Shown piece by piece: positions 2,182 through 35,246 of a DNA stretch of 64,000 bases. Under the pieces are notes generated by a model, which ran no database searches, had not been told where the DNA came from, and saw nothing but the letters and a program-made list of their open reading frames with translations. Within the stretch, counting starts at the first letter, position 1. Each line of letters opens with the position of its first letter. Origin of the DNA: Dehalococcoidales bacterium (GTDB lineage Bacteria > Chloroflexota > Dehalococcoidia > Dehalococcoidales > RBG-16-60-22). The DNA lies in NCBI GenBank assembly GCA_034418415.1, contig DAOULS010000080.1, positions 8,513-72,512 on the forward strand, in the 5' to 3' direction. A program made the position numbers and the translations under genes.

Positions 2182-2196
2182 TAAGGAGAACAAAAA

Positions 2197-3311: not shown

Positions 3312-3363
3312 GAATGAATAATAATATCCCTAATAATATAACTACTGGGAAAAAGGAGATAAC

Positions 3364-3720: not shown

Positions 3721-3756
3721 TATCTCGGGATATTAAGGTTTTTGGGAGAAAAGCAG

Positions 3757-13462: not shown

Positions 13463-13494
13463 GTCCGGTGTAATAGACCTGGAAAGGGGAAAAT

Positions 13495-16337: not shown

Positions 16338-17797
16338 AGAAGATAACGATAGACCCGATAACCCGTCTCGAAGGCCACGGTAAGATAGAGATATTTCTGG
16401 ATGACAAGGGCGGGGTCGCTAATTCATATTTCCAGGTGCCGGAATTGAGAGGCTTTGAGAAGTTCGCCGAAGGTCGCAATTCCGACGATATGCCACAGAT
16501 TACCGAGAGGATATGCGGCGTCTGCCCGGAAGCGCACCACCTGGCTTCGACCAAAACACTTGATGCCCTCTACCACGTCGACCCGCCCCCGACAGCTAGA
16601 AAACTACGTGAAATTTTCTACGATGCCTTCTATGTAACCGACCATACCACGCATTTCTACATCCTGGGCGGCCCGGACTTTGTCATGGGGCCCGATGCCC
16701 CGGTAGCCGAGCGCAATATTATCGGCGTTATCGGCAAGGTGGGGCTGGAACTGGGTGGGGCTGTTATCAAAGCCCGCATGCGGAATCACCATGTCATCGA
16801 GTTGATTGGCGGCAGGGGTGTTCACCCTGTCTTCGGTCTGCCCGGCGGCGTCAGCAAAAGCATTAATGAAGAAGAAAGAAAAGAAATCGAGGAAATTGCC
16901 AAGGAGTCGATAGAGTTCGGCAAGCTGTCGCTGAAGGTCTTCGATGATATTGTTCTCAAGAACAAAGCCTATGTAGATATGATTGTCAGCGATGCTTATA
17001 CCCACAAGACCTACTATATGGGACTTGTGGATGAGAACAACAAAGCCAACTATTATGACGGCAAGGTCAGGGTAGTTGACCCCGAAGGCAAGGAATTTGC
17101 GAAGTTTGCTCCCGCCGAGTATCTCGACCATGTCGCCGAGCATGTTGAGCCGTGGTCCTATATCAAGTTCCCCTTCCTGAAGAAGGTGGGGTGGAAGGGA
17201 TTTGTGGATGGCAAGGACAGCGGTGTCTTCCGCGTAGCGCCGCTCGCCAGGCTCAACGCCGCCGACGGTATGTCGACCCCGCTGGCACAGGAACACTACG
17301 AGAAATTCTACGAGACCCTCGGCGGTAAGCCGGTACACCATACGCTGGCGATGCACTGGGCACGCCTTATCGAGCTGCTTAATGCCGCAGAACACATGCT
17401 GGAGCTGATTCGCGACCCTGACATTACCAGTCCTGAAATACGCACTATCCCCGATAAGACTCCCGATGAAGGCGTAGGAATCGTGGAGGCGCCCCGGGGT
17501 ACGCTTATCCACCACTATATCACCGATGAAAAGGGCGTGATTCAAAAGGCAAACCTGATTGTAGCTACGGTCAACAACGGCGCCGCCGTCAATATGTCGA
17601 TAGGTAAAGCGGCCAAGGCGGTTATCCAGCCCGGTAAGGAAATCACCGAGGGCATCCTCAACCGGGTAGAGATGGCCTGGCGTCCCTACGACCTCTGCCT
17701 TGCCTGCGCTTCGCATGATTTGAATGGCCCTTCACCGGTGCCGATTTACGTGTACGACAGCCAGAAAAATCTGGTGAAGAAACTGGGTGGAGATTAA
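16334..17797 (+). CDS. mvhA: [NiFe] hydrogenase large subunit, Mvh type
   Basis: N-terminal RICGVCPEAHH and C-terminal DLCLACASH Ni-binding motifs, with a C-terminal tail after the His. ATGA overlap with mvhG. Confidence 0.92.
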   Translation: MKKITIDPITRLEGHGKIEIFLDDKGGVANSYFQVPELRGFEKFAEGRNSDDMPQITERICGVCPEAHHLASTKTLDALYHVDPPPTARKLREIFYDAFYVTDHTTHFYILGGPDFVMGPDAPVAERNIIGVIGKVGLELGGAVIKARMRNHHVIELIGGRGVHPVFGLPGGVSKSINEEERKEIEEIAKESIEFGKLSLKVFDDIVLKNKAYVDMIVSDAYTHKTYYMGLVDENNKANYYDGKVRVVDPEGKEFAKFAPAEYLDHVAEHVEPWSYIKFPFLKKVGWKGFVDGKDSGVFRVAPLARLNAADGMSTPLAQEHYEKFYETLGGKPVHHTLAMHWARLIELLNAAEHMLELIRDPDITSPEIRTIPDKTPDEGVGIVEAPRGTLIHHYITDEKGVIQKANLIVATVNNGAAVNMSIGKAAKAVIQPGKEITEGILNRVEMAWRPYDLCLACASHDLNGPSPVPIYVYDSQKNLVKKLGGD

Positions 17798-21045: not shown

Positions 21046-22392
21046 ATGAATAAAGTCGAAAAAGTCGTTGTTATAGGTTGTTCAGGCACCGGTGCACTGG
21101 CGGCGCGCATGCTAAAAAATCTTGCGCCCTCTGTGGATGTATCTATAATCAGGGAAGAGGAGGAGCCGGGCTTACTGACCAGATGCGCTACGCCGTATAT
21201 CTGTTTTGGGCATGTACTCACGGACCCTTCTTACAAAGATGATGGTATCTTCACCAAAGCCGGTATAAACCTGGTCAATATAAAAGCCGAAAAAATTGAT
21301 AGAAAACAGAAGATGGTAACCACTGCCGATGGTAAGGATTATTACTACGACAAACTGGTTCTGGCTACCGGGGCCAGGTCTGTAGTGCCTCCTATCCCGG
21401 GAGCCGAACTGCCCGGGGTTTTCACACTGCGTACGAGCGGTAGTGCCATTGATATTCTCCAGTGGTTGAATACCAAGCGGGTAAAGAGCCTGGTCCTGGT
21501 GGGCGGTGGTGCTATTAGTGTCGAGATTGCCTACCTGGCTAAACAGCATGGTATCAATGTGACAATGATAGAAATACTGGAGCATGTTCTATCAAAATCA
21601 TTGGACCCGGATATGAGCGAGGATGTGGAGAGCTACATGAAAGAGCAGGGTGTAGACCTGCGTTTAGGTGAACAGGTCAAGGAAATTAGCGGCAATGGAA
21701 AAGTCCAGGGCGTGTCACTGGCATCAGGTGAAAGAGTTAATGCGGATATGGTGATTATCTGTGTCGGGGCTGAACCTCGCAGTGAATTGGCTGAAAAAGC
21801 CGGGCTTGAAATGGGTGAACTGGGGTTGAAAGTCAACAAGTATCTGGGAACTTCCGACCCTGATATTTTTTCCGCAGGCGACCTTGTTCAGTATTCAAGT
21901 TTTATTACGGGTAAGCCGATAAGAGGACAGCTGCGACCTAACGCTGTAATTGGCGGCAGAATAATCGCTAAAAATATCCTCGGATACGGTATTGAATATC
22001 CTCCTCTCATTAACAGCTTCGCCACTAAATTCTTTGAGAAATCTATCGCCGGAACGGGCATCACCGAATCAGAGGCAGTAAATAACGGTATCAGTGCAGT
22101 CAGCTCAATACAGTCTTCGGCAAGTCAGCACTCTATGATGAGAAGCAGAAAACCCTATAAAATTAAGTTGATTTTCGATAAGGAAGATAAAAGAATTATC
22201 GGCGGACAGATTGTAAGCGATAGCGAATGCCCGATAAAGCATATTGATGCATTGGCCGTGGCTATAAGAGCGCGCTGGACTTCTCTCGATTTATCGACAT
22301 TGCGGTGCGCCGGCCAGCCGGAGTTATCCCCGGACCCGGGTATGGAACCGATAGCACTAGCTGCTGAAACCGTCGAAAAAATGTTAGGTTAG
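21046..22392 (+). CDS. FAD-dependent pyridine nucleotide-disulfide oxidoreductase (NADH oxidase / CoA-disulfide reductase-like)
   Basis: N-terminal dinucleotide fold (VVVIGCSGTGALAA), single redox Cys context (LTRCATPY), second Rossmann fold (LVGGGAISVE), and SAGD motif. Confidence 0.85.
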   Translation: MNKVEKVVVIGCSGTGALAARMLKNLAPSVDVSIIREEEEPGLLTRCATPYICFGHVLTDPSYKDDGIFTKAGINLVNIKAEKIDRKQKMVTTADGKDYYYDKLVLATGARSVVPPIPGAELPGVFTLRTSGSAIDILQWLNTKRVKSLVLVGGGAISVEIAYLAKQHGINVTMIEILEHVLSKSLDPDMSEDVESYMKEQGVDLRLGEQVKEISGNGKVQGVSLASGERVNADMVIICVGAEPRSELAEKAGLEMGELGLKVNKYLGTSDPDIFSAGDLVQYSSFITGKPIRGQLRPNAVIGGRIIAKNILGYGIEYPPLINSFATKFFEKSIAGTGITESEAVNNGISAVSSIQSSASQHSMMRSRKPYKIKLIFDKEDKRIIGGQIVSDSECPIKHIDALAVAIRARWTSLDLSTLRCAGQPELSPDPGMEPIALAAETVEKMLG

Positions 22393-22552
22393 AAATATAT
22401 ACGTAAGTGGTTTCAACTGGTAGTAGTCCCATTATTTCTACCGGGCATTTTTTACTCTGAATCTCGTCTGGCTTAACTAAATTGCTAGTACGCAATACTA
22501 TACTTCCTGCCGCCTAATTACTTGTTTATTAAAATGTATATGCGTATTCAAA

Positions 22553-22592
22553 TGTCATAATTTTGTAATATTTATCTCCTCCTTTTTATAAC
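22553..22592 (+). promoter_or_regulatory. Copy A of the conserved 40-nt promoter/operator module
   Basis: TGTCATAATTTTGTAATATTTATCTCCTCCTTTTTATAAC, that is TGTCA-N6-TGTAA then TATAAC exactly 16 nt after the 18-nt box. Lies about 30 nt upstream of the 22624 CDS. Confidence 0.55.
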
Positions 22593-22623
22593 TATTCCAC
22601 CATAGAACCTCTAAAATTGCGGA

Positions 22624-22908
22624 GTGATGAAAACAAACGGAACTCCAATAATATCAGAAGAACCGGGACAATCGGGTTCCGGTGTTAGAGCAAACGTAGC
22701 CAGAATCTTACTTGAACATGCCAGGAATGGCCACAATATGCAGGGCAATCTTTCCCAGAGAGAAATAGCGACGATTTTGGGTGTAAACATATATCAAGTC
22801 TATTCGTCAATCCAGTCTTTGTATCATGAAGGACTAATCGGCCTTGAGTGCCGTCGCATTATAATCAAAAAGAAGTTACTCCAAAAATTAGCCAATACGT
22901 CCCGATAA
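22624..22908 (+). CDS. Small winged-helix/HTH protein (hypothetical regulator)
   Basis: LSQREIATILGVNIYQVYSSIQSLYHEGLI resembles a Crp/MarR-type wHTH. GGAG RBS. Start is GTG 22624 or ATG 22627. Confidence 0.6.
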   Translation: MMKTNGTPIISEEPGQSGSGVRANVARILLEHARNGHNMQGNLSQREIATILGVNIYQVYSSIQSLYHEGLIGLECRRIIIKKKLLQKLANTSR

Positions 22909-23033
22909 AAAAGAGTACGGGAACGTATAACAGCACTATCAACAAAATATGAGATGGCTACTTGCAGGGGTAATGAGCCCATCTTCAGCTCGTGGACTTA
23001 AGATAGACTGGCCGCTGGAGCTTCCGTTCAAAG

Positions 23034-24944
23034 TTATGGTTTAAGTTTTTCCAGCAACTCGTTGAGTCGAACTGTAGCTACGGCAGTGACTTTATCCGCG
23101 CCACCATAGTAGAGGTGCAGGGTATTCTCAATTACAGCGGCGCCGCAGGAGAAAACGGCATTATTAACAATACCGTTTCTCTCATAATCCGTTTCAGGTT
23201 CCAGGATAGCTGTATAAGTACGTCCGATAATACGCATGGGGTCGTTCAGGTTTAATAGTGCCGCTTTAATTTCGTAATAAGCATGGTTAATGGTCACCCC
23301 ATGATAAAGCAAAAGCCAGCCGTGTGGTGTTTCAATAGGCGGTCCGGCGATGCCGATTTTCTGGTGGACACGCGGCATAGGCCTGGGTGTCATGAGAACC
23401 TGCCCGTAAATCCACCTGTTGCCGTCAAAGTCCAGGTCATCAACAAAATCCACCCAGATGCTGTCACCGAGGCGGTGTAAAATTACATATTTACCCTCTA
23501 TTTTCTTGGGAAATATCGCGGCATCTTTATCAGCTAAATCAGGGGGAGAAATCAATACCGGTTCGGCCCAGTCCCATTGTTTTGCTAAAAAATCATCCAG
23601 TTTGATGTGTGTAAGTGCTACTCTAGGAGGATTTTTGCCGCTGAAGGCGGTATAACACATGTATAGATTATCTCCTATTCGGGTTAATCGGGGGTCTTCA
23701 CAGCCGGAGTTGCCCCCCGCTACCTGCTTCATCTCGAAGTCCTTTCGCGGTACGTATACAGGGTCAGGTAGCCGTTCAGTAATCCGCGTGCCGTCGGCGC
23801 TGGAAGCATACCCCAGAACGGAGGTATTATCATTCGACATAGCCCGGTAAAGAAGGTGAACCCTGCCTTTTTCATAAATAACCCCCGGATTAAAAGTTGC
23901 CTGGGCTTCCCAAGGATTTTGGTCGTTGGGTGTGAGGATAGGATTATCAAAAAAGCGTTTGAGTTTTACAGTATTAACTTCAATTCCCAGTATTTCACGT
24001 ACCATCTGGTCTAAATTGATGGTCGCCGCGGCACAGGTGGTATCCGCCGCGCCGTAATACATATACAGCTCTTTACCCCTGACAACAGCACCGGTTGGGA
24101 AAACGATGTTCGGGACGCGTCCGTATTTTTCATATTCCTGTCGCGGTACCAGGAGAGGTTTCTTGGTACGGCCGAGCACCTCGGTGGGGTTATATAAACT
24201 CAATAATGCGGCTTCTACGCCGAAAACAGGTGGCGGATTGAAGTAGTTCTGAATATGACTGTAGAGTAAAAGCCAACCGTATTTGGTCTTAATGGGAGGC
24301 GCCCCGACCTCAATCTGGTCTTGGTCTTGCCGTTCCAGAGGAATGGTGCGTGAATTTAGCGATTCGTACCACTTGTCCCAGTAATTTTGCGACCAGATTT
24401 CAGTTTCGTCATCAAAATAGGCAACGGCGATTTTAGCTGGAGGATTGTCCGTGTTTGCCGTGAGCACGGCGGCAATTTTCCCATTGATTCTTTCGGGAAA
24501 AAGCGCCATAGCCTTGGCGTTGAAAGTAGTAACAGGATGTTTGGCTTCAATCTGTTTAAAATCACTGGTAATAGCTACCCCGACTCTAATACCATCGGCA
24601 GTGAAGGGATATTTAGATAGAGCCGTGTAAAAAATATAGTATTTACCATCCAGGCCGGTAACGCGCGGGTCCTCGCAGCCGAACTGCTCCCACTCCTCCT
24701 CCGGTCTGATAAGCTGGTAACGGTCATTAAAGTGAATACCGTCACTACTCGAAGCACAGCCAATGGACGAGACATTCCTGTGAGGTCCTCCGTTGCTTAA
24801 AGCCGATGATTCAGCGCGATACAAGAGATATATCTTACCCTTATGCTTGACAGGGCAACCGTTAAAGGTCGCCTCTCCCTCCCAGTTGTTATCAGGGTCG
24901 GGTATTAAAACTGGGTTCTCGTCAGAGCGTTTAAAGCGAATCAT
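23034..24944 (-). CDS. Tandem double GH130-family (PH1107/DUF377-type) glycoside phosphorylase/hydrolase-like protein
   Basis: Two complete five-bladed-propeller-type halves. Each has FN(G/P)..., LLYRA, GCEDPR(V/L)T and YYG(A/G)AD motifs. ATG 24944 is preferred (AAGGA 8 nt upstream); the track uses TTG 24950. Confidence 0.85.
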   Translation of the reverse strand: MIRFKRSDENPVLIPDPDNNWEGEATFNGCPVKHKGKIYLLYRAESSALSNGGPHRNVSSIGCASSSDGIHFNDRYQLIRPEEEWEQFGCEDPRVTGLDGKYYIFYTALSKYPFTADGIRVGVAITSDFKQIEAKHPVTTFNAKAMALFPERINGKIAAVLTANTDNPPAKIAVAYFDDETEIWSQNYWDKWYESLNSRTIPLERQDQDQIEVGAPPIKTKYGWLLLYSHIQNYFNPPPVFGVEAALLSLYNPTEVLGRTKKPLLVPRQEYEKYGRVPNIVFPTGAVVRGKELYMYYGAADTTCAAATINLDQMVREILGIEVNTVKLKRFFDNPILTPNDQNPWEAQATFNPGVIYEKGRVHLLYRAMSNDNTSVLGYASSADGTRITERLPDPVYVPRKDFEMKQVAGGNSGCEDPRLTRIGDNLYMCYTAFSGKNPPRVALTHIKLDDFLAKQWDWAEPVLISPPDLADKDAAIFPKKIEGKYVILHRLGDSIWVDFVDDLDFDGNRWIYGQVLMTPRPMPRVHQKIGIAGPPIETPHGWLLLYHGVTINHAYYEIKAALLNLNDPMRIIGRTYTAILEPETDYERNGIVNNAVFSCGAAVIENTLHLYYGGADKVTAVATVRLNELLEKLKP

Positions 24945-24978
24945 GCCCAAAATCCTTTCTCTTTTTTTACAGACTTTC

Positions 24979-26256
24979 CTAAATACGCAGGGTAGATTTT
25001 ACAAATTTCAGCATGTTTTTCCCGCACTGCGGACACACACCCTTGATAGCATGCCTCATGTTTTTGAAAACTACACGACGCGGGTTTTTAATAACCCGCT
25101 TTTGCCGGCATTTAAGGCAGAATCCATCTACACGTTTCATTGTCTTATCTGCATCAGAAGAAGGCGGTACGCTTATGCTCCGGCCGGTCGACTCTTTATG
25201 GTTTGCGGCGAGCTCCTCGACAAAGCCGTTTAGTTTTACCGAGGCAACGCCGACTATCTTATCAGCCCCTCCATAGTATACAAACAAGCGTTTGTTAATT
25301 ATGGCAGCCCCGCAGGGATAAACCACGCCGGCTTTCCAGCCTTCGTTTTCATACCAGGCGTTAGGCTCAAGAATAGGTTTCCTGCTTCGAGCCAGCACCT
25401 TGGTCGGGTCTTTCAGGTCCAGCAGCATCGCCCCGATTTTATAACGGTAGCCGTCATTCTTACCAACCGCCTGATAAACAAGCAGCCAGCCATATTTAGT
25501 TTTTAATGGTGGCGGTCCTGCCCCAACCTTGTGGCTGTCCCACTCTGAACTCGAGGTCCTTATAGGTATTTCATACTGTCCGGTCAGCCACTTTGTTCTG
25601 CCGTCAAAGTCCAGGTCGTCAACGAAGTCAATAAGTATATTCGGATAAATCCGATGAAAAATAACGTATTTCCCATTTATTTTTTCCGGGAAAATACAGG
25701 CATTCTTGTCCACGATGTGGGGGGGAGAGATAAGGACGGGTTTTTTCCAGTCCCACCGCCGGGCAAGAAAGTCATCAACATGAATCGAGGTCAATGCCAC
25801 GCGGGGGGGATTGCGCCCGTCATAAGCGACATAGGTCATATATACACGTTCATTAATTCTGGTCAGGCGCGGGTCTTCACAGCCCCCCATACCCCCGCCT
25901 CCCGAAACATAGATACCCGAAGTCCCTGTACCAGGCTGGTAAACCGGGTTGATTCCTTCGAATGGTTCTCTAGGGGAGTACACCGGCTTATCGAGGCGTT
26001 CCTGAATATGCATCCCATCCGTGCTGGAGGCGTAGCCTAACATGGAGACATCCGTTTCACCAATTGCCCGGTAAAGAATATGTACCTTGCCGCCTTCATA
26101 AATAGCGGCGGGATTAAAGGTGGCTTTTGTCTCCCACCAGCTATCGGGTCTGGGGGTCAAAATAGGATTACCTTTATACCTTTCCAGTACCAATGGAATG
26201 TTTTTTACTAATTGTTTCGTCATTATTCCGTGTTGTTTTGTCATTATCCCGGCCAT
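24979..26256 (-). CDS. GH130-family protein fused to a C-terminal CxxC...CxxC zinc ribbon (DUF5679-like)
   Basis: GH130 motifs (FNPAAIY, ILYRA, GGCEDPRLT, YYGGAD) and a close paralog of the second half of the 23034 gene. C-terminal tail is FCLKCRQKRVIKNPRRVVFKNMRHAIKGVCPQCGKNMLKFV. GGGGGTGG RBS. Confidence 0.85.
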   Translation of the reverse strand: MAGIMTKQHGIMTKQLVKNIPLVLERYKGNPILTPRPDSWWETKATFNPAAIYEGGKVHILYRAIGETDVSMLGYASSTDGMHIQERLDKPVYSPREPFEGINPVYQPGTGTSGIYVSGGGGMGGCEDPRLTRINERVYMTYVAYDGRNPPRVALTSIHVDDFLARRWDWKKPVLISPPHIVDKNACIFPEKINGKYVIFHRIYPNILIDFVDDLDFDGRTKWLTGQYEIPIRTSSSEWDSHKVGAGPPPLKTKYGWLLVYQAVGKNDGYRYKIGAMLLDLKDPTKVLARSRKPILEPNAWYENEGWKAGVVYPCGAAIINKRLFVYYGGADKIVGVASVKLNGFVEELAANHKESTGRSISVPPSSDADKTMKRVDGFCLKCRQKRVIKNPRRVVFKNMRHAIKGVCPQCGKNMLKFVKSTLRI

Positions 26257-26311
26257 TTTCTTCCACCCCCTTTGTCAGCGACTTGTGTTTACCGGTTATT
26301 CAGTATTTTTA

Positions 26312-26788
26312 TTAAGTAAGTTCTTCGTTTAGTTCATCCAGCCGAGCCAGGACTTGTTTATTAGGAGGAATATCACTCATGGATGCCCCATGATGTTCCA
26401 GGCGTATCATGCCGTTTTTATCAATCACAAATAGAGCTGGCATCCTGCCCATTTTCAGGAGATTAACCTCCTGCCCGAACTTTTTAGCAATTGTGTGGGC
26501 GGGGTCAGGTATGCCAATAAAAGGTATCTTTTTGCTGCGCCAGTAGTCCGAGAGCTGTTTAGTGTTTTCAGGTCCTACAGCAATGACTTCTGCATCACGG
26601 TCAATGAATTGCTGATAATCCTGACGCAACTGCGCCATATGCTCCCGGCAGTATGGTCAGCCCAAACCCCGATTGAATACCAGCACCACATGCTTCTTGC
26701 CTTTATAATCCGCCAGCCTTATTAATCTTCCATGTGTATCGTTAGCAAAAAAGTCCTTTGCAGAAGCAGCGGTTTTAGTATTTGTCAT
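26312..26788 (-). CDS. Peroxiredoxin/thioredoxin-fold (AhpC/TSA-redoxin) selenoprotein; in-frame TGA at 26659..26657 read as Sec (residue 44, U-P-Y-C motif)
   Basis: The track ORF (26312..26638) is only the C-terminal two-thirds. The same frame upstream reads MTNTKTAASAKDFFANDTHGRLIRLADYKGKKHVVLVFNRGLG-TGA-PYCREH-MAQL..., with ATG 26788 preceded by GGGGAGG. A hairpin follows the TGA. Confidence 0.8.
26622..26637 (-). promoter_or_regulatory. Candidate bacterial SECIS hairpin
   Basis: mRNA sequence UGGCGC-AGUU-GCGUCA, a 6-bp stem including one G-U pair with a tetraloop that has G at its second position. Starts 23 nt after the U of UGA. Confidence 0.5.
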
Positions 26789-26939
26789 TACAATGGCCTC
26801 CCCTAAGAGTAATTACCTCTGGATATGGCTGGTAAAGAAGCGGTAATATCATGCACCTAAATCTTGGAAGTGGGGCTCTAGAAGGCATTACAGTCTTGCT
26901 TATGTCCCTTAAAAATTTTAGATTACGGCCAGTGGAAAA

Positions 26940-26979
26940 GTTATAAAACCAGCGGGAAAAACGTTACAAAATCGTGACA
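26940..26979 (-). promoter_or_regulatory. Copy B of the conserved 40-nt promoter/operator module (faces the selenoprotein-GH130 operon)
   Basis: Minus-strand read is TGTCACGATTTTGTAACGTTTTTCCCGCTGGTTTTATAAC, in the same register as copy A. Confidence 0.55.
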
Positions 26980-27046
26980 TTTCCTGGCTGGGTTTAAAAT
27001 CAGGGAAGGCGGTATTTGTGAATCGGGGATGGTTTTATGAAAAAAA

Positions 27047-27086
27047 TGACATATTTTTGTAATTATTCCGGGGCCTATTTTATGAC
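27047..27086 (+). promoter_or_regulatory. Copy C of the conserved 40-nt promoter/operator module
   Basis: TGACATATTTTTGTAATTATTCCGGGGCCTATTTTATGAC, in the same register. Lies about 57 nt upstream of the 27143 CDS. Confidence 0.55.
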
Positions 27087-27142
27087 TTTTCCATCAGTAG
27101 CTATATAAAATCTCTAAATCAGGCAGTCTGGAGGGACGGGTA

Positions 27143-27364
27143 ATGACACTAACGCTAATAAAAGAAGAGAGGATTTTAAAAAATAGGGCAGGGGATGATT
27201 CATTAAGGACCGAAGAGGTCATGGCGTTTTGCCCCCGGTGTAAAGCCCTCCAGACAGTCTGGCTTCAAGGGAATATTATGATGCCGACACGCAAATTTAG
27301 TCAGGCAGGGGGCCGGATTTATCATAATTGTGGCTCAAATCAACCGTGCATTCTATATTCTTAA
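27143..27364 (+). CDS. Small hypothetical zinc-ribbon protein
   Basis: GGAGGG RBS 8 nt upstream. CPRC...HNCG cysteine/histidine pairs. No family recognised. Confidence 0.45.
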   Translation: MTLTLIKEERILKNRAGDDSLRTEEVMAFCPRCKALQTVWLQGNIMMPTRKFSQAGGRIYHNCGSNQPCILYS

Positions 27365-27451
27365 TGTTTAATATAACCCACAGATTGACGATATATAGTC
27401 TTTAAAAGGAAAGCTAACTCCCACGGGAAAGTGTGCCGTTATGAGGTCTGG

Positions 27452-28150
27452 TTAATTTTCGGTCTCGTCGATAATGTACCCGGTCTTGGGCACGGTACGA
27501 ATAAGGGCGGGATTATCCGGGTCTCTTTCCATCTTGTGTCTAAGTCGACTAATCCAGGTTCTTAATATCTGAACATCATCACGATATTCCGGCCCCCAGA
27601 CTCTTGTTAGCAGGTCCCCGTAAAGCATGAGTTTGCCTCGGTTGCGGGCAAGCTCACTCAATAGCAGCCACTCGATACGGGTTAGTTGAATTTCCTGGTC
27701 GTCAACAACGACCATACGGTTTCTTAAATTGATGGTTAAGTTTCCCAGAGTTATTGATTCAATGATTTTTCGGTCTTCCGCGGGTGCCAGACGCCGCCTG
27801 ACGGCTTCAATACGGGCGACCAGCTCATCGGGATTAAAGGGTTTGGCCAGATAATCATCAGCGCCCATTTTCAAACCCTTGACCTTATCAACATTGGTTT
27901 CCTTGGCGCTTAAAATAATAACCGGCACCGGGGATACTGCCCGGATCTGCTTTAGAGTTTCAAAGCCGTCCATACCAGGCATAACAACATCGAGTACAAG
28001 CAGGTCCGGTTCCTGTGTCTGAACCTGGGCTAAAGCCTCCGAGCCGTTATTGGCGGATAGCACTTCATACCCCGAAGCCGTGAGTTTCACCTGAAGGAAC
28101 TGGAGTATATGCGGCTCATCATCAACTATCAGTACGCGAAACTGCTTCAT
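27452..28150 (-). CDS. OmpR/PhoB-family response regulator (REC + winged-helix)
   Basis: REC domain (VLIVDDEP, LLVLDVVMPGMDG, LAKPF) and trans_reg_C (LTRIEWLLLSELARNRGKLMLYGDLLTRVWG...TVPKTGY). Confidence 0.92.
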   Translation of the reverse strand: MKQFRVLIVDDEPHILQFLQVKLTASGYEVLSANNGSEALAQVQTQEPDLLVLDVVMPGMDGFETLKQIRAVSPVPVIILSAKETNVDKVKGLKMGADDYLAKPFNPDELVARIEAVRRRLAPAEDRKIIESITLGNLTINLRNRMVVVDDQEIQLTRIEWLLLSELARNRGKLMLYGDLLTRVWGPEYRDDVQILRTWISRLRHKMERDPDNPALIRTVPKTGYIIDETEN

Positions 28151-28273
28151 TATTCCATCCTGTAAGTATAAGCTGCAAACAAATGATAATCAGTGGTTTG
28201 GCAAAATGTCAAATACTATTGATTTTTCCAACCTGTCATCTCCACTAACCTGATAAAGTCGATACAAGTAAAA

Positions 28274-28313
28274 TGTCATAAAACTGTTATATTTTTTATA
28301 TGATATTTATGAC
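28274..28313 (+). promoter_or_regulatory. Copy E+ of the conserved 40-nt module (faces the REC gene at 28403)
   Basis: TGTCATAAAACTGTTATATTTTTTATATGATATTTATGAC. The first 17 nt nearly equal the E. coli Pho-box consensus CTGTCATA(A/T)A(A/T)CTGTCA(C/T). Confidence 0.55.
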
Positions 28314-28314
28314 A
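28275..28314 (-). promoter_or_regulatory. Copy E- of the module (faces the RR gene at 28150), mirror-overlapping copy E+
   Basis: Minus-strand read is TGTCATAAATATCATATAAAAAATATAACAGTTTTATGAC. Its TATGAC is the complement of the TGTCATA box of E+, and vice versa. Confidence 0.5.
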
Positions 28315-28402
28315 CTTTCATAACGTATAACGTATAATAGGTATAATCTACTACCAGACACCAGTAGTAAATTTTATAGCGCCAGAAGACTGGTGGATAC
28401 CT

Positions 28403-28768
28403 ATGAATGCAACAGTAAAGAAGAAACTCGTGCTTGTGGTGGATGATGAGCCCGGGGTTCTTACTTTCATTGAAATAGACTTAAAGCTCCGTGGTTTTAG
28501 TGTTATCACGACGGTTTCCGGCGAGAAGGCACTGGAGTTGGTTACATCAAAGAAACCAGATATATTATTGCTGGATATGATAATGCCGGAGATAGACGGT
28601 TTTGAGGTGTTGAACAGGCTGCGGGCTTTTTCAGATTTACCGGTAATTGCTTTTAGCGCCAGCCCGGGGAATCAGGACCCGGCAATACTTGCGGGCGCCA
28701 ACGATTTCATTCACAAACCGTTCGATCCCGACGAGGTTGAACAGAAGATTACTGTTCTCTTGGAATAA
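28403..28768 (+). CDS. Single-domain response regulator (REC only)
   Basis: VLVVDDEP, LLLDMIMPEIDG and IHKPF receiver motifs in 121 aa. Confidence 0.88.
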   Translation: MNATVKKKLVLVVDDEPGVLTFIEIDLKLRGFSVITTVSGEKALELVTSKKPDILLLDMIMPEIDGFEVLNRLRAFSDLPVIAFSASPGNQDPAILAGANDFIHKPFDPDEVEQKITVLLE

Positions 28769-28783
28769 AAAAGACTGAAAAGC

Positions 28784-30964
28784 TTATTTAGTTTTCACAC
28801 GTGTAGGTAGAGAAAAGGAAAAGACAGAACCTTTATCCGACTCCGATTCCACCCAGATTTGCCCGCCCTGTGCCTCCACCAGTCGTTTGCATACCACTAA
28901 TCCCAACCCGAGACCCTGGCGTGGTTTACCACCTCTTTCCAGCCGTTCAAAGGGTTCAAATATTTTTTCAAGGTCTTCCGGAGGTATACCCATGCTGTTA
29001 TCGGCTATTCTGGTGATGACCTTGCCATTCTCTTTCCGCGCTGATACTTTTATTTCACTATCTTCATGGGAATATTTGTTGGCGTTCTCGAGGAGATTAT
29101 AGAGAATTCTCTCCACTCTTATCGGGTCGGCTTCAACGGTAGGTAAATCGGTTGGAAAATCTATCAGAAATCGACGTTCGCCCCGGGCTTTCAATCGACT
29201 TATAACAGTCTCTGTGATACTTGGTATATCAACCGTCTCACGATGAAGCTGGAGACGCCCGGCCTGATACCTTGAAAGCTCCAGCAGGTTTTCCAGAATG
29301 GTGGCCAGTGAACCAGCACCCTCGATGGCATTTTCCAGGAGGATGCGTTTGTTTTTGGTGGATATACCTGCGGACATAGCTGTCCTTAAAGAACCTGTAA
29401 TCACCGTCATGGGAGTGCGGAGTTCGTGTGAAACAAGGCCGATAAACTCATCTTTGAGTTGTTCCGCTTTTTTACGTTCCGTAATGTCCTGCCCCTGCGC
29501 GATGGTGGCAATAACCGTTTTGCCATCTTCGGCGTATAGGTTAGCGGAATTCCACAAAAGGATATAAACAGCGCCGTCCTTGTGCTTGATGGGAATTTCT
29601 ACTACTTCCCACCGTACTCCTGAAGTGGCTTTGTGGATGTGCTTCATGGACTTGTCACGGCTGTCATCCGGGAAGAGGATGTCCAGAGTATTACCTAATA
29701 CTTCTTTAGCGGTACGCCCTGTGAGTCGTTCAAAGGCATGGTTAAACCTGGTAATTTTAAAGTCCGGGTTCCAGACGATAATCGGGGCGTTGGCGTAATT
29801 AATAAGATTATCCAGATAGTCGCGTGTTTCACGGAGTTCTTTGGTACGTTCTTCAACACGTGTCTCCAATTCGACACGAGCTTTATTTAATTCTTCCTGC
29901 GCCTGCTTGTGTTCAGAAATTTCTGCCTGTAAAGCTATATTAACTTCAGCCAGTTCTTTAGTACGCTCTTGGATGCGTATCTCCAGTTCCTCCCGGATTT
30001 TACGCAGAGCCTCCTCGGTTTTTTTACGCTCGGTTATATCATGAACCATGCCTAAAGAGCGGACAATCTTACCTTGTTTATTCTTTACATGGTTGCATTT
30101 TTCATGGACGAAGCGTACTTCGCCGGTGTCTTTCCTGATAATTCTATGCTCAATCTCATAACCGTCCTTCCCCTCGCTTACGGAACTGGAGTAAGCGTTA
30201 TCCACGGCAGCACGGTCATCAGGGTGAACGGACTCCAGGAAAGCCTCATATGTAGCGTTGAATTCCTGCGGTTTTAAACCAAAAATGCGGTACACCTCAT
30301 CAGACCAGGTCAGGGTATTCCCGGCAAGGTCAAACTCCCAGCTGCCCAGACTTGCTATTTCCTGTGACCGTTTTAACATGTCCTCGCTTTGCAGCAGCCT
30401 TTTCTCCACGCTTCTGTGCTCGTTAATCTCTTTTTTAAGGTCGAGGTTGACCTCTTCTAATTGGGCGGTGCGTTGTTTCACCAATTCTTCAAGGTGTTCC
30501 CGATAAGTGATAAGCTCCGTTTCATGTTGCTGGCGTGTAACCAGTTCTTTATTAGCTTCCTGGGTTTTTTTACGAAGGCTGGAAGATAGGTAGCTGATAA
30601 CAATACCAACAAATAAAAATATCAGAGCAATTGGTACTTCGAAGATATGGAACGATAAGAAACTGTGGAGCGGCGGTAAGAAATAATAATCGAAAGCTAT
30701 CACACTGATGATACAGCATAAAATTGACGGACCTAACCCGAAGAAAAATGCGGTCACTACGATAGCCAGAATGTAAGTAATGGGTACATTGGCAGGAATG
30801 ATATCCGGTTGTGCCAATTGCTTAAACCAGGTAGCTAAGGCAACGACTCCTACCGCGAAGGTGTAGCCGAACCAATGATGATAAATGAATTTGCCTATTT
30901 TTCTTAATATACTCATGGTTGATAATTTGTTCATATATTTTATATCTGATTTCAATATTAGCAT
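28784..30964 (-). CDS. Sensor histidine kinase: KdpD-type DUF4118 membrane module, coiled coils, two PAS domains, HisKA, HATPase
   Basis: N-terminal 4-TM segment resembles DUF4118 (ILAIVVTAFFFGLGPSILCCIISVIAFDYYFLPP). H-box VSHELRTP, plus N/G boxes. The exact start is uncertain, with several Met codons in the first 20 codons. Confidence 0.9.
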   Translation of the reverse strand: MLILKSDIKYMNKLSTMSILRKIGKFIYHHWFGYTFAVGVVALATWFKQLAQPDIIPANVPITYILAIVVTAFFFGLGPSILCCIISVIAFDYYFLPPLHSFLSFHIFEVPIALIFLFVGIVISYLSSSLRKKTQEANKELVTRQQHETELITYREHLEELVKQRTAQLEEVNLDLKKEINEHRSVEKRLLQSEDMLKRSQEIASLGSWEFDLAGNTLTWSDEVYRIFGLKPQEFNATYEAFLESVHPDDRAAVDNAYSSSVSEGKDGYEIEHRIIRKDTGEVRFVHEKCNHVKNKQGKIVRSLGMVHDITERKKTEEALRKIREELEIRIQERTKELAEVNIALQAEISEHKQAQEELNKARVELETRVEERTKELRETRDYLDNLINYANAPIIVWNPDFKITRFNHAFERLTGRTAKEVLGNTLDILFPDDSRDKSMKHIHKATSGVRWEVVEIPIKHKDGAVYILLWNSANLYAEDGKTVIATIAQGQDITERKKAEQLKDEFIGLVSHELRTPMTVITGSLRTAMSAGISTKNKRILLENAIEGAGSLATILENLLELSRYQAGRLQLHRETVDIPSITETVISRLKARGERRFLIDFPTDLPTVEADPIRVERILYNLLENANKYSHEDSEIKVSARKENGKVITRIADNSMGIPPEDLEKIFEPFERLERGGKPRQGLGLGLVVCKRLVEAQGGQIWVESESDKGSVFSFSLPTRVKTK

Positions 30965-31059
30965 TATTCATTCGCAGAGACAATCAGAGAGTCTTTGTTT
31001 TTCTGCACTCATGGGTAATGGGTGTATGGTTGATAGTCAATAGGTGTTTAGCCAACAAA

Positions 31060-31099
31060 TGCTATAAATTTGTAACACTTTTACTAGTCGCGATATAAC
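31060..31099 (+). promoter_or_regulatory. Copy F of the conserved 40-nt module (faces the USP-HEAT-ATPase genes)
   Basis: TGCTATAAATTTGTAACACTTTTACTAGTCGCGATATAAC, in the same register (TGnnA-N6-TGTAA, N16, TATAAC). Confidence 0.5.
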
Positions 31100-31207
31100 T
31101 ATTTAACCCGGGGAAGGCTAAAATGCTCTTGAGAGGCAGATTTGTTATATCCATACGCAAGATTTCTTTTAATGCCCCGGATATTAAAAAATTAAGGAGA
31201 GACTTTA

Positions 31208-32149
31208 GTGTTTAAAAGGTTGCTGGTGCCACTGGACACTTCAGAACTGGCGGAAATAGCGCTACCCTACGCGAGGGAGTTAGCCATAAAATTGGGGGCG
31301 GAGGTTATCCTGATGCATGTGAGAACGCTGGCCGATACTCCAGACAAGCCGGACCATAAGGCTTATATGAGTAAAACGGCGGCGGAAACAGAGCAGATAA
31401 TTAGAAAATCTGGTTCGCTGCCCGCGGGAGAAAAAATTAAGGTAGCAACGGCGATTGTCGGTCCGCCGAGCCTGATAAACCATCCTGCCGAGGGAATAGT
31501 AGATTATGCCGAGAAAGTAAATGCCAGTATGATTGTGATGGCCACGCACGGCCGGTCCGGCATCAGCAGGTGGGCTCTGGGAAGTACGGCTGATAAGATA
31601 GTACGGGTTTCCAAATGCCCGATATTGCTTATCAGGAAAAACCTTGAAGTAACCGGGGAAGTCAGTTTGGAGAAAATACTGGTTCCAATCGACGGGTCTA
31701 AAGCCAGTGAAGAGACGCTGCACTATATTGCGAACCTCATTCCCAAGTTAAAGGCCAAGGTTAATCTTTTAACCGTTGTTGAACCGTTGTACCATCTTTA
31801 CCCTTGGTCTGATGGATTCAGTTTTTATGGTGCAGCAGGAATTATACGAATACCTTACTCTAAAAAAGAGATGGGACCTTATAAAGAGATTGCTGATAAA
31901 TTTATCGGGGACGTGAGTGATAAGCTTAAAGAAAAAGGTGTCGATGTCAATTATGAAGTACGACTGGGTCCGGTTAGTGACGAGATAATCGAGGCGGAGG
32001 AAGAAATAAATCCTGACATAGTCATCATGTCAACACACGGTCATTCAGGGTTCGGCCGCTGGGACCACGGCAATGTCACTGATAAAGTTCTACATGCCGG
32101 GAGCAAACCGCTATTGCTGGTCAGACCGCAGCTATCGCAGTCTACTTAA
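31208..32149 (+). CDS. Tandem universal stress protein (2 x UspA domain)
   Basis: Two Usp repeats, each ending in an ATP-binding-type motif (MATHGRSGISRWALGSTA; MSTHGHSGFGRWDHGNVT). GTG start after AAGGAGAG. Confidence 0.88.
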   Translation: MFKRLLVPLDTSELAEIALPYARELAIKLGAEVILMHVRTLADTPDKPDHKAYMSKTAAETEQIIRKSGSLPAGEKIKVATAIVGPPSLINHPAEGIVDYAEKVNASMIVMATHGRSGISRWALGSTADKIVRVSKCPILLIRKNLEVTGEVSLEKILVPIDGSKASEETLHYIANLIPKLKAKVNLLTVVEPLYHLYPWSDGFSFYGAAGIIRIPYSKKEMGPYKEIADKFIGDVSDKLKEKGVDVNYEVRLGPVSDEIIEAEEEINPDIVIMSTHGHSGFGRWDHGNVTDKVLHAGSKPLLLVRPQLSQST

Positions 32150-32192
32150 GTAATATTGTTGGTACAAATTTGAATAAGTTAAGGAGAAATTA

Positions 32193-32732
32193 ATGATAGC
32201 AAATAAAACAAAACAACGTGCGCCGGCTACGGTTAAAAAAGCAGCAACAGCAACTATAAGAACGCTGGTTAACGACCTGTGCAGCGAGGACGGGCTGGTA
32301 AGAGTGCGGGCGCGCAAGCGTCTGGTAGCGCTGGGGAATCAATCCGTGAGACCGCTGAAAAAACTTCTGGGAAGTAAAAGAGAATGGGTACGCTGGGAGG
32401 CAGCTAAAGCACTCGGGCAAATCGGCGACCCCGCGGCAGCTCAAGCGCTGATAAAAGCTCTGGAAGACAACATGTTTGATGTTCGCTGGCTCGCGGCAGA
32501 AGGGCTGATTTATATGGGGAAAAGTGCCCTCGTTCCCTTGTTGCAGGCGATAAGGGAACGTCCTGACTCTTTCTGGCTTAGAGAAGGCGTGCACCATGTA
32601 CTGCACGATGTAAATAACGGAAAAATTGTTGAGATAATACGACCGGTAATCATCGCCTTGGAAAGTTTTGAACCATCGGTGGAGGCACCTCCGGCTATCG
32701 AGAGAGCCCTAGAGGTGTTAAACAAAAAGTAA
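32193..32732 (+). CDS. HEAT-repeat (PBS-lyase-type) protein
   Basis: Repeated VRxxAAxALGxIGDPxA units (VRWEAAKALGQIGDPAAAQALIKALEDNMFDVRWLAAEGL). Confidence 0.75.
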   Translation: MIANKTKQRAPATVKKAATATIRTLVNDLCSEDGLVRVRARKRLVALGNQSVRPLKKLLGSKREWVRWEAAKALGQIGDPAAAQALIKALEDNMFDVRWLAAEGLIYMGKSALVPLLQAIRERPDSFWLREGVHHVLHDVNNGKIVEIIRPVIIALESFEPSVEAPPAIERALEVLNKK

Positions 32733-32798
32733 GATTCAAGCAGTTACGGTGGATGAATATCACCGGGCGAAAAATTCAAGCGACCGCATTGGAGTAAA

Positions 32799-35246
32799 GT
32801 GGTTGAAACGTCCCAGCGGCAACTGAAGGACTTAAGCGTTGCCGAAATACAAAAGCATTTACAGACTTCCGCAAATGGTCTTAGTAAGACAGAGGCGGAG
32901 CACAGGCTGGCGCAGTACGGCTATAATGAGCTTCCAGAAAAGAAAGTCAACACTTTTTTAAAATTCCTTTCATATTTCTGGGGGCCAATCCCTATTATGA
33001 TAATAATAGCGGCGGTCCTCTCCGGAGCGTTGCAACGCTGGCCGGACCTTGGCGTTATTTTAGCGCTGCTGTGTCTAAATGCTATCGTAGGTTTCCGCGA
33101 GGAATACCAGGCGGGCAACGCCGTAGCTGCGCTTAAGGCGAAACTGGCAATCCAGGCTAATGTCAGGCGAGACGGTAAATGGTCCGGCATACCGGCGCGG
33201 GAACTCGTTCCCGGTGATATCATTCGTCTGCGTATCGGCAACATAATACCTGCGGACGCCAAGCTCCTAGAAGGAGACCCGGTACAGGTAGACCAGTCTG
33301 CCCTGACCGGTGAATCACTGCCGGTTGAGCACAAAACTGGAGACACCGTTTATTCCGGTTCTATCCTGAAGCAGGGCGAAATCGACGCTATAGTATATGC
33401 TACGGGCAAGGACACTTATTACGGCAAGACCGCCCAGTTGGTAGAGACGGCTGAAACACGCAGTCATTTACAACGTGCCGTTCTTAAGATTGCCGACTAT
33501 CTTATTGTCATTGCCGTAGGATTGGCGATATTGATATTAGGCGTTGCCTTTTTCCGCCACGACCCGATACTCCAGGTACTGCAATTCGCGCTGGTTCTGA
33601 CTATCGCGGCTGTCCCGGTAGCTATGCCGGCGGTGCTTTCGGTAACCATGGCGCTGGGGTCCAAAGTACTGGCGGCCAAGCAGGCTATCGTTACTAAGCT
33701 AACCTCTATCGAGGAAGTAGCCGGTGTCGATGTTCTCTGTTCCGATAAGACAGGTACGCTAACACAAAGCAAACTAACCATAGGAGACCCTTTCACCGTT
33801 AGAGGCACTGCTCCGGAACAGGTGATATTAAACGGGGCCCTGGCATCAAGGGAGGAAGATAAGGACCCCATCGACCTGGCTGTATTAAGTGGCTTAAAAG
33901 ACGTGAAGCAACTGGAGTTATATAAGATAGGTCACTTCCAACCCTTTGACCCGGTACATAAGCGTACCGAAGCGACTGTAAAAGATGAAAATGGTCATGA
34001 ATTTAAAGTCGCCAAAGGCGCTCCACAGGTAATTCTGGCGCTCGACCCTGATGCCGCTGAAATACAGTCCCGGGTCGATAAGGCGGTCAACGAATTTGCT
34101 GTGCACGGCTTCCGCTCGCTCGGAGTGGCGCGGACCAATGAGGAAGGTCAATGGCAGCTCCAGGGGATTATCCCAATGTTTGACCCGCTGCGGGAGGACT
34201 CCAAAACCACGATTGATGCTACTAAAGATATGGGGTTGAATATAAAAATGCTGACCGGTGACCAGGTAGCTATAGCCAGGGAAATAGGGCAGCAGCTGGA
34301 CCTGGGTACAAATATTATGGATGCCAGTATTTTCGAAAGTACCAGGCAACATGAAACCGGGCAGATGGCGGAAGCAATCGAAAAAGCCGACGGCTTTGCA
34401 CAGGTTTTCCCCGAACATAAATATCATATAGTTGATGTGCTACAGAAAAGCGGGCATATCGTGGGTATGACCGGCGACGGTGTTAACGATGCTCCGGCTT
34501 TAAAGAAGGCCGATGCCGGTATCGCCGTTGCCGGTGCTACTGATGCCGCACGAGCTGCTGCTGATATCGTGCTTTTAACTCCCGGACTTTCGGTCATTGT
34601 CGATGCAATCAAAGAAAGCCGTAAAATATTCCAGCGTATGATTAACTACTCGACCTACCGTATCGCCGAGACTGTCCGGGTCTTATTGCTGATGACCCTG
34701 TCTATCATGGTCTTCAATTTCTATCCGGTAACGGCGATTATGATCGTACTTCTGGCAATATTGAATGACGGGGCTATCCTGTCAATCGCCTATGATAATA
34801 CGTGTTATTCTGATAAACCAGAGGTCTGGAATATGCGAACGGTTTTGGGCGTGGCAACGTCTTTGGGTCTGATAGGGGTAATTGCGTCCTTCGGGCTTTT
34901 TTACCTGGGTGAAAACGTCTTCAATCTAAGCAGAGACTCAATCCAGACCTTAATGTATCTGAAGCTATCGGTGGCCGGTCATCTTACGGTATTTGTTACC
35001 CGCACCCGGGGGCCTTTCTGGACTATCAAGCCGGCCCGCATATTACTGCTGGCGGTAATAGGCACGCAAATGGTAGCTACCTTAATTGCAGTTTACGGGC
35101 TGGGAATGACCCCCATCGGATGGGGGTGGGCCGGGGTGGTATGGGGATACGCTCTAGCCTGGTTCCTGGTGAATGACATGGTGAAGCTATTGGCATATAG
35201 ATTGTTTGACCGGCAGCATACCAGCTTATTGGTAAAAAAATGCTGA
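32799..35246 (+). CDS. P-type ATPase, plasma-membrane H+-ATPase-like (type IIIA)
   Basis: DKTGTLT, TGES, MTGDGVNDAPALKKA and an N-terminal region collinear with plant/fungal/archaeal P3A pumps (GLS..EA..RL..YGYNELPEKK...FLKFL.YFWGPIP). Confidence 0.9.
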   Translation: MVETSQRQLKDLSVAEIQKHLQTSANGLSKTEAEHRLAQYGYNELPEKKVNTFLKFLSYFWGPIPIMIIIAAVLSGALQRWPDLGVILALLCLNAIVGFREEYQAGNAVAALKAKLAIQANVRRDGKWSGIPARELVPGDIIRLRIGNIIPADAKLLEGDPVQVDQSALTGESLPVEHKTGDTVYSGSILKQGEIDAIVYATGKDTYYGKTAQLVETAETRSHLQRAVLKIADYLIVIAVGLAILILGVAFFRHDPILQVLQFALVLTIAAVPVAMPAVLSVTMALGSKVLAAKQAIVTKLTSIEEVAGVDVLCSDKTGTLTQSKLTIGDPFTVRGTAPEQVILNGALASREEDKDPIDLAVLSGLKDVKQLELYKIGHFQPFDPVHKRTEATVKDENGHEFKVAKGAPQVILALDPDAAEIQSRVDKAVNEFAVHGFRSLGVARTNEEGQWQLQGIIPMFDPLREDSKTTIDATKDMGLNIKMLTGDQVAIAREIGQQLDLGTNIMDASIFESTRQHETGQMAEAIEKADGFAQVFPEHKYHIVDVLQKSGHIVGMTGDGVNDAPALKKADAGIAVAGATDAARAAADIVLLTPGLSVIVDAIKESRKIFQRMINYSTYRIAETVRVLLLMTLSIMVFNFYPVTAIMIVLLAILNDGAILSIAYDNTCYSDKPEVWNMRTVLGVATSLGLIGVIASFGLFYLGENVFNLSRDSIQTLMYLKLSVAGHLTVFVTRTRGPFWTIKPARILLLAVIGTQMVATLIAVYGLGMTPIGWGWAGVVWGYALAWFLVNDMVKLLAYRLFDRQHTSLLVKKC

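Follow-up and report, generated by a model that had tools for sequence, protein, structure and literature searches.

The window analysed here is a stretch of 64,000 nucleotides (nt) from a Dehalococcoidales bacterium (contig DAOULS010000080.1), and it carries a recurrent intergenic motif between positions 22,550 and 31,124. The best explanation, and in our judgement a probable one, is that every copy forms the upstream portion of an activator-dependent promoter of rigid layout, about 68 nt long, and that these promoters serve a stress regulon driven by a response regulator (RR) of the OmpR/PhoB family encoded in the same block. An initial annotation of the window had described the motif as six copies of a 40-nt unit. 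All six 40-mers were found in the right places and on the right strands, but the conserved unit is in fact about 68 nt long (module positions -2 to 65). The count also needs qualification: six sites match the motif, but two of them, E+ (28274) and E- (28314), overlap almost fully and represent the opposite strands of one 41-bp palindromic stretch, which leaves five independent places.

The unit was defined from an alignment of 35 sites, covering positions -19 to +100, from nine non-redundant loci, namely the window and eight orthologous loci fetched from relatives, with RRs 76-87% identical. Three conserved blocks are separated by unconserved spacers: block 1 at positions -2 to 21 (AAATGTCATAnTTTTGTAAYnnTT), block 2 at positions 31 to 47 (aTTTTATRACtTTTccA) and block 3 at positions 60 to 65 (TAnAAT). 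The whole consensus can be written as aAA-TGTCATA-nTTT-TGTAAY-nnTT, about 9 variable nt, aTTTTATRAC-TtTTcnA, about 12 variable nt, and TAnAAT. The blocks are kept across the nine loci, while positions 22-30 and 49-57 carry only about 0.1-0.2 bit each; block 1 has the highest information content (33 bits) and block 2 holds about 25 bits. Within block 1 lie the direct repeats TGTCATA (positions 1-7) and TGTAAYn (positions 12-18), with a period of 11 bp, in which T1, G2 and A5 as well as T12, G13 and A16 are invariant or nearly so over the 130 sites of the final set. The initial annotation correctly recognised this arrangement of two direct half-sites, 11 bp apart, as one of OmpR/PhoB type. The modules of the window are listed below, with scores in bits from a matrix made only of orthologous sites (HTH, helix-turn-helix; ORF, open reading frame; aa, amino acids; USP, universal stress protein).

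22550..22617, + strand: module A, 76.8 bits, ahead of the small CRP-type HTH gene; block 1 at 22550-22573 (AAATGTCATAATTTTGTAATATTT), block 2 at 22583-22599 (TTTTTATAACTATTCCA), -10 TAAAAT at 22612-22617.
26915..26982, - strand: module B, 68.0 bits, ahead of the AhpC/TSA gene (with an in-frame TGA) and the GH130 genes; block 1 at 26982-26959, block 2 at 26949-26933 (GTTTTATAACTTTTCCA), -10 TAAAAT at 26920-26915.
27044..27111, + strand: module C, 72.3 bits, ahead of the 73-aa zinc-ribbon-like ORF at 27143-27364; block 1 at 27044-27067, block 2 at 27077-27093 (ATTTTATGACTTTTCCA), -10 TAAAAT at 27106-27111.
28271..28338, + strand: module E+, 55.0 bits, ahead of the lone receiver-domain gene at 28403-28768; Pho-box-like block 1 (TGTCATAAAACTGTTATA) from 28274, -35-like ATGACA at 28309-28314, -10 TATAAT at 28333-28338.
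28250..28317, - strand: module E-, 24.0 bits, facing the RR gene; TATCAG at 28255-28250 in place of the -10.
31057..31124, + strand: module F, 42.7 bits, ahead of the USP, HEAT-repeat and P-type ATPase genes at 31208-35246; block 1 (AAATGCTATAAATTTGTAACACTT) from 31057, -10 TAAAAT at 31119-31124.

Within the palindromic pair, the sequence that serves one copy as half-site 1 serves the other as its -35-region element (block 2). E- itself is weak, with a poor second half-site and less than 10 bits in block 1. Module F and the start of the divergent histidine kinase gene are about 95 nt apart.

Spacing within the module is rigid, with block 2 at the expected offset in 30 of the 33 block-1 matches; one match has no block 2 at all. 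Two matches carry a 1-nt spacer insertion, and in these block 3 shifts along with block 2, as expected if both form the core promoter. Such an insertion is seen in the orthologue of the module F site in locus L083 (7099, - strand). Block 3 lay outside the search matrix and is conserved nevertheless (T60 in 32/35, A61 in 35/35 and T65 in 33/35 sites). The same bases recur in 20 further metagenome sites that do not match the search pattern (T60 in 18, A61 in 19 and T65 in 19 of them), where A47 is present in 20/20.

Because a matrix built from the six window sites is overfitted, three controls were used: leave-one-out scoring, unrelated DNA and an orthologue-only matrix. Left out one at a time, the six sites scored 12.7-38 bits. 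With the six-site matrix, unrelated bacterial DNA (1.37 Mb) gave at most 21.3 bits, and the sites of the orthologous loci scored 27-44 bits; the unrelated DNA consisted of the loci of distant RR homologues (30-52% identity, other phyla), with no orthologue among them, and no such sites were present there. The orthologue-only matrix (69 nt, 28 sites from eight other organisms, no window sequence) returned exactly the six sites listed above, with no further site of 5 bits or more in the 64 kb, and shuffled sequence scored below 0. Separate matrices for block 1 and block 2 matched the window only inside the modules. The statement that the motif occurs nowhere else in the window therefore stands, and none of its other intergenic regions (about 58 ORFs) has a copy. 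An RNA element was considered and rejected, as a search of positions 22000-32000 gave no match to any Rfam family, conservation ends at the -10 and the spacers show no covariation.

The most economical reading of the three blocks, judged from the alignment, is that TAnAAT (positions 60-65) is the -10 and that a weak ATGACT or ATAACT (positions 36-41) is the -35, with an 18-nt spacer between them. In sigma70 -10 elements, the A at position 2 and the T at position 6 are the most constrained bases, and TAnAAT is a signature of the primary sigma factor. When these two bases and a -35-like hexamer 16-18 nt upstream are demanded, ATGACT/ATAACT-18-TAnAAT (positions 36-65) qualifies, and TTGTAA-18-TATRAC fails because its position 6 is a C. 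Transcription would then be expected to start near module position 72, about 7 nt after TAnAAT, which would place the direct repeats at about -71 to -54, clear of the -35, and the second conserved block at -41 to -25. A consensus promoter scanner independently called ATGACA-18-TATAAT at E+ (28309..28338, 11/12) and ATGACT-18-TAAAAT at C (27082..27111). Modules A and F, with just 3/6 matches in the -35, were not called, which fits activator-dependent promoters. The bound protein would presumably activate rather than repress. A partial argument for the start site comes from the small HTH gene. In the window, L083 and L092, the sole possible start of its ORF lies at module positions 71-75 (in the window GTG 22624, which is position 72, 6 nt past the -10 hexamer), and in two of these, the window and L092, no in-frame stop is nearer than the TAA of the -10; such a start would fit a transcript that is leaderless or nearly so and begins at about position 72.

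The initial annotation had drawn the promoter differently, in the classic PhoB-like manner, with the half-sites replacing or overlapping the -35 (TTGTAA), TATRAC (positions 35-40) as the -10 and the start about 7 nt later. TTGTAA-18-TATRAC is formally a possible pair, both of its elements are strongly conserved and the box is Pho-box-like in sequence. However, TATRAC ends in C in 30 of the 35 aligned sites and in 117 of the 130 in the final set; for that reason, and given the conserved TAnAAT downstream, it is better placed in the -35 region than taken as a -10. That geometry also offers no reason for a TAnAAT fixed 20 nt further downstream, in front of unrelated genes with very different leader lengths, and the joint shift of blocks 2 and 3 speaks against it. 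We consider it quite unlikely, and place the start after TAnAAT and the repeats upstream of the -35. The chance that the 40-mer is a generic housekeeping promoter, the outcome that the initial annotation had itself named as a possible refutation, or a dispersed (mobile) repeat is negligible. It does occur several times and does contain promoter-like hexamers, but the other intergenic regions of the window and the 1.37 Mb of other genomes hold no copy, Rfam recognises no family, and the spacers are unrelated among the copies while the sites hold their orthologous positions in different species. Within the available data this reading is effectively refuted already, and the motif stands as a specific regulatory module.

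The following genes and promoter bear on the question of which protein reads the module:

27452..28150, - strand: OmpR/PhoB-family RR (REC + Trans_reg_C), candidate binder of the direct repeats.
28784..30964, - strand: sensor histidine kinase (DUF4118 membrane domain, PAS, HisKA and HATPase_c by Pfam), the presumed cognate kinase.
22624..22908, + strand: stand-alone CRP/FNR-type DNA-binding protein of 94 aa, conserved in the regulon and the second candidate for the binder.
28183..28212, - strand: canonical sigma70-like promoter TTGACA-18-TATCAT (11/12), directly upstream of the RR gene and flanked by its start codon and the palindromic module.

The sequence comparisons favour the RR as the binder of block 1, a reading that we consider somewhat more probable than not. 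The protein has both domains of its family (PF00072 at 3.3e-35 and PF00486 at 4.7e-18), and its best solved relatives are RegX3, MtrA, KdpE and PrrA, the PDB relatives being about equally distant. Among the nine orthologues its recognition-helix region, GPEYRDDVQILRTWISRLRHK, is altered by no more than two or three conservative changes and the KTGY wing motif by none, which matches the invariance of the DNA motif, while the corresponding helix of the small HTH protein varies; the choice of the RR as best candidate in the initial annotation is upheld by this difference. Direct repeats with an 11-bp period are also the arrangement of the half-sites in the Pho box and in KdpE sites. In locus L096, the region between the lone-receiver and RR genes has no standard module and instead contains, at 9884-9906 (- strand), 3-4 phased 11-nt units (TGTAACGAATT, TGTTATGAATT and so on) of the pattern TGTwAyGAATT, in line with repeats of RR type.

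The RR gene itself is likely to be autoregulated in the family, since loci with isochorismatase or HtrA before the RR have a full module ahead of that operon; in the window, where only the weak copy E- faces the gene, autoregulation would be weak at best. The TTGACA-18-TATCAT promoter, whose TTGACA is present in L083 as well, probably provides basal expression of the RR. No motif-driven promoter was found for the kinase gene.

Block 2 resembles a further, third half-site. Half-site 2 recurs in it in direct orientation, along with both T-tracts (TTTTGTAACTTTT vs TTTTATGACTTTT, offset 23 nt), and it can equally be read as half-site 1 and its A-tract in inverted orientation (AAATGTCATA vs the reverse complement AAAAGTCATA). 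In the divergent region between the receiver and RR genes, in the window and in L083 alike, the two modules overlap in such a way that half-site 1 of one is block 2 of the other, which suggests that the same protein may read both. A third RR protomer, region 4 of sigma, both of these or another protein may be the reader of block 2. Its interpretation as a second tandem box was rejected, because no consistent partner half-site lies at +/-11 nt.

Two other assignments of the blocks have to be weighed against the RR-driven promoter, together with the points that weigh against the latter. The small CRP-type HTH protein might bind the repeats or the -35-region block, alone or together with the RR at a composite promoter with two regulators. 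Its fold is that of the DNA-binding domain of the CRP/GlxR/Vfr family, its gene carries one of the best-conserved modules, and block 2 still has no assigned binder. Nevertheless, the dimerisation and nucleotide-binding domain of CRP is absent, the sites are direct repeats at 11 bp rather than a CRP-type inverted repeat, and the protein is just 30-45% identical between loci. Its putative recognition helix (NIYQVYSS, SWGMVYLS, GWDTVHLS and DWYTVHIS among orthologues) varies where the DNA motif does not, and on our reading of the alignment the protein does not retain the R, E and R positions through which CRP contacts bases. As the binder this protein is unlikely, although it may have a role at block 2 or as a feedback factor. 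Highly unlikely is a promoter class of an alternative (stress) sigma factor, with blocks 2 and 3 as its -35 and -10 and block 1 as an accessory upstream element. The long, highly conserved block in the -35 region, so unlike TTGACA, and the gene content of a general stress or dormancy regulon would agree with it, but the -10 is of the housekeeping type TAnAAT, no sigma-factor gene is linked in any locus, and the most informative block is block 1, which has the repeat structure of an RR site. The RR-driven promoter, for its part, has several observations to contend with: block 2 is conserved far beyond the need of a -35 hexamer; the small HTH gene is as syntenic as that of the RR; and CRP-family domains read TGTGA-like half-sites, which resemble TGTnA. 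The source genome was scanned over the 64-kb window, and 77 of the 130 sites behind the final consensus were picked by a pattern that already fixes parts of blocks 1-3. Finally, in most HTH orthologues a second ATG is conserved within the ORF, some 24 nt further on and behind a Shine-Dalgarno-like sequence (in the window this ATG is changed to ATA), for which reason a leaderless HTH mRNA is only partly usable as proof of the start site, even though three loci permit no other start.

The closest named homologues of the RR belong to Dehalococcoidales metagenome-assembled genomes, and more than 120 sequence clusters of homologues were found at 74-98% identity. Each orthologous locus contains 2-6 high-scoring sites, all of them intergenic and all pointing toward a gene, and in every locus the RR adjoins the motif. 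Synteny is kept for the kinase, the lone receiver on the opposite strand, the RR (with isochorismatase or HtrA) and the small HTH gene, and the kinase is syntenic in all orthologous loci that have one. Nearby genes include ORFs of about 75 and about 100 aa, HSP20, AhpC/TSA, GH130, USP, an M50-CBS protease and encapsulin.

Metagenome contigs were scanned with a 65-nt degenerate pattern (45 bits); at least 120 stretches matched, of which 80 loci were analysed, yielding 101 sites of at least 24 bits. An RR orthologue was present in just 18 of these loci. Stretches of 10-15 kb with a site and without the RR (L107, L110, L111, L139, L145, L160, L174 and L175) indicate that sites unlinked to the regulator exist. 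The initial view of a local regulon proved too narrow, because the module recurs in related loci and metagenome contigs and precedes many other genes, including some in these 10-15 kb stretches.

Among the loci analysed, the most frequent downstream gene belongs to a zinc-ribbon family of 73/75 aa (9 sites), followed by a family of about 100 aa (6 sites). Other downstream genes encode HSP20, the small HTH protein, USP, the lone receiver, isochorismatase and DedA/VTT proteins; catalase, a fused cbb3-type oxidase, a flavodiiron-like protein (ODP + flavodoxin) and a multicopper-oxidase-like protein; a Pyr_redox_2 flavoprotein, glucose/sorbosone dehydrogenase, NadA, a ribosome hibernation factor (S30AE), an aldo-keto reductase and a molybdopterin oxidoreductase; and a P-type ATPase, an M50-CBS protease and sugar-nucleotide and glycosyl transferases, with HtrA also found in relatives. 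Judging from this gene content, the module marks a dispersed, probably oxygen-related stress regulon, the theme of which would be defence against oxygen and oxidative stress together with the protection of proteins and ribosomes. In locus L141 (432-1445, - strand), a full module stands before an IS1595-family transposase gene, which probably inserted there and displaced the original target.

In the proposed mechanism, the adjacent DUF4118-PAS histidine kinase would feed phosphate to the RR (27452-28150), and the phosphorylated RR would bind the tandem repeats as a head-to-tail dimer. From this fixed distance it would recruit RNA polymerase to a weak core promoter, possibly aided by an additional protomer or by direct contacts at the -35-region block. 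The regulon switched on in this way would comprise, in the window, the CRP-type HTH protein, the peroxiredoxin-GH130 genes, the zinc-ribbon peptide, the lone receiver, the USP-HEAT-P-type ATPase genes and, weakly, the RR itself; in relatives it would add catalase, the cbb3-type oxidase, the flavodiiron-like protein, HSP20, HtrA, the hibernation factor and NAD genes. A broader proposal can be offered only tentatively, namely that the Dehalococcoidales share an order-wide regulon for oxygen or oxidative stress and dormancy, built on one rigid tripartite promoter with the RR at the distal tandem box and a second factor at the -35 block. That second factor would be either the stand-alone CRP-type protein or a third protomer of the regulator, and the members would include catalase, cbb3-type oxidase, the flavodiiron-like protein, a seleno-peroxiredoxin, HSP20, USP, the hibernation factor, NAD synthesis and the zinc-ribbon peptides. 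The Dehalococcoidales are strict anaerobes, abundant in sediments and aquifers and hard to culture, and their transcription control is almost unstudied. A promoter module of about 66 bits, conserved across the order, offers a ready way to read the stress regulon from genomes and metagenomes and points to one two-component system as its master switch. The gene list suggests how these anaerobes outlast episodes of oxygen or starvation, which is relevant to bioremediation.

The RR is a member of the OmpR/PhoB family that falls far below every curated NCBIfam cut-off for the named regulators. It scored 173.6 bits as PhoB with TIGR02154 (cut-off 296.2) and 159.9 with NF053854 (cut-off 270), 169.2 as KdpE (cut-off 325), 124.8 as TorR (cut-off 275), 204 as MtrA (cut-off 300) and 216 as RpaB (cut-off 330), and all of these identities were rejected. 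The kinase reached no curated cut-off either (KdpD, 165.6 vs 1123).

Compared with PhoB and the E. coli Pho box, the regulator is of the same winged-helix family and the site has the same design of two 7-bp direct repeats with a 4-bp A/T-rich spacer and an 11-bp period. The closeness of E+ to the Pho-box consensus pointed out in the initial annotation is real, with 16/18 positions shared both with CTGTCAT-AWAW-CTGTMAY and with the E. coli pstS box; the consensus of the module family agrees at about 15/18. The E. coli Pho box lies about 10 nt upstream of the -10. Here, in contrast, the box ends at position 18, some 41 nt upstream of the conserved -10 (TAnAAT from position 60), and the -35 is not replaced. 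No phosphate-acquisition genes (pst, phoA, ugp, phn) and no kdp genes were found in the window. The target genes were surveyed through the 25 most frequent of 90 Pfam families, from 71 downstream proteins, and 20 proteins were scanned individually; neither these families nor these proteins included pst, phoA, ugp, phn or kdp genes.

With the tor boxes of TorR the half-site shares a relation to CTGTTCATAT, without the extra base. The torCAD operon likewise has several boxes, with a distal tandem pair and a promoter-proximal box near the -35, and there too the divergent regulator gene shares the control region. TorR, however, controls essentially one operon, as opposed to the dozens of promoters with rigid spacing seen here. 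Several features recall KdpD/KdpE: the membrane domain of the kinase, DUF4118, is one typical of KdpD, many RR orthologues carry the automatic name KdpE from the Joint Genome Institute (JGI), the half-sites have a 6+5 bp period, and USP and P-type ATPase genes belong to the regulon. The KdpE site of kdpFABC lies upstream, at about -70 to -50, as the repeats do here. The half-sites differ, being TGTCAT/TGTAAY rather than the TTTATA/TTTACA of KdpE (TTTATA-N5-TTTACA); kdpA and kdpC are lacking, the ATPase has a Cation_ATPase_N domain, and PAS domains replace the N-terminal, USP and GAF domains of KdpD. DosR/DevR of Mycobacterium tuberculosis is an autoregulating two-component system for a dormancy regulon with USP, alpha-crystallin/HSP20, redox enzymes and tandem boxes at fixed positions (PMC3177182). 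The traits shared with the present system, which are USP, HSP20, redox enzymes, fixed tandem boxes and, probably, autoregulation, make it a functional analogue only, since DosR is of NarL/LuxR type with palindromic boxes, and neither regulator nor motif is homologous to those described here. In the library that could be searched, no paper on this regulon or motif in Dehalococcoidia was found. By its sequence features the system would work like a PhoB/TorR/KdpE-type promoter and belongs to none of these; the regulon is new and well conserved, and its mechanism is ordinary two-component promoter biology.

The regulon within the window is confined to 22.5-35.2 kb. Pfam agrees with the genes assigned by the initial annotation, except that for the putative H+-ATPase it supports a P-type ATPase and not the specificity for H+. 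The target genes not yet listed are:

26788-23034, - strand: AhpC/TSA gene, followed by GH130+DUF5679 and double GH130 genes.
27143-27364, + strand: 73-aa zinc-ribbon-like ORF (CPRC...HNCG...C), no Pfam match.
28403..28768, + strand: single-domain receiver protein (Pfam), divergent from the RR and a conserved regulon member.
31208-35246, + strand: tandem-USP protein, HEAT-repeat protein and P-type ATPase (Pfam).

The AhpC/TSA gene (26312-26788, - strand) is a candidate selenoprotein gene, as its in-frame TGA at codon 44 falls within a G-U-P-Y-C (UxxC) redox motif. It is likewise split in L001 and L083 (into calls of 43 and 105 aa), and its L099 orthologue is uninterrupted (153 aa). The GH130 genes (23034-26256, - strand) encode three mannoside-phosphorylase-like domains in two genes, one of them fused to a C-terminal DUF5679 zinc-ribbon. 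Peroxiredoxin and GH130 are apparently co-transcribed under the stress promoter; in function they make an odd pair, which L083 has as well. The zinc-ribbon-like proteins form a family of about 65-85 aa (CxxC...C) with no Pfam or NCBIfam match, and relatives were found in L083-L099 and in nine metagenome loci.

The isochorismatase and M50-CBS protease genes of the window (46000-46695 and 56643-57761) are without a module, and their homologues in L087, L090, L092 and L096 are module-driven, so that membership of the regulon differs between species. Outside the regulon, a chemotaxis cluster at 118-4803 (+ strand) encodes CheA (Hpt-P2-dimerisation-HATPase-CheW), a CheC-like protein and CheB, which is unexpected for a lineage usually called non-motile. 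A further cluster at 10118-17797 (+ strand) has the look of an Mvh/Hdr-like electron-bifurcating system; it comprises a flavoprotein/Fe-S protein of 1114 aa, an Hdr-like protein with a CCG domain and both subunits, small and large, of a NiFe(Se) hydrogenase.

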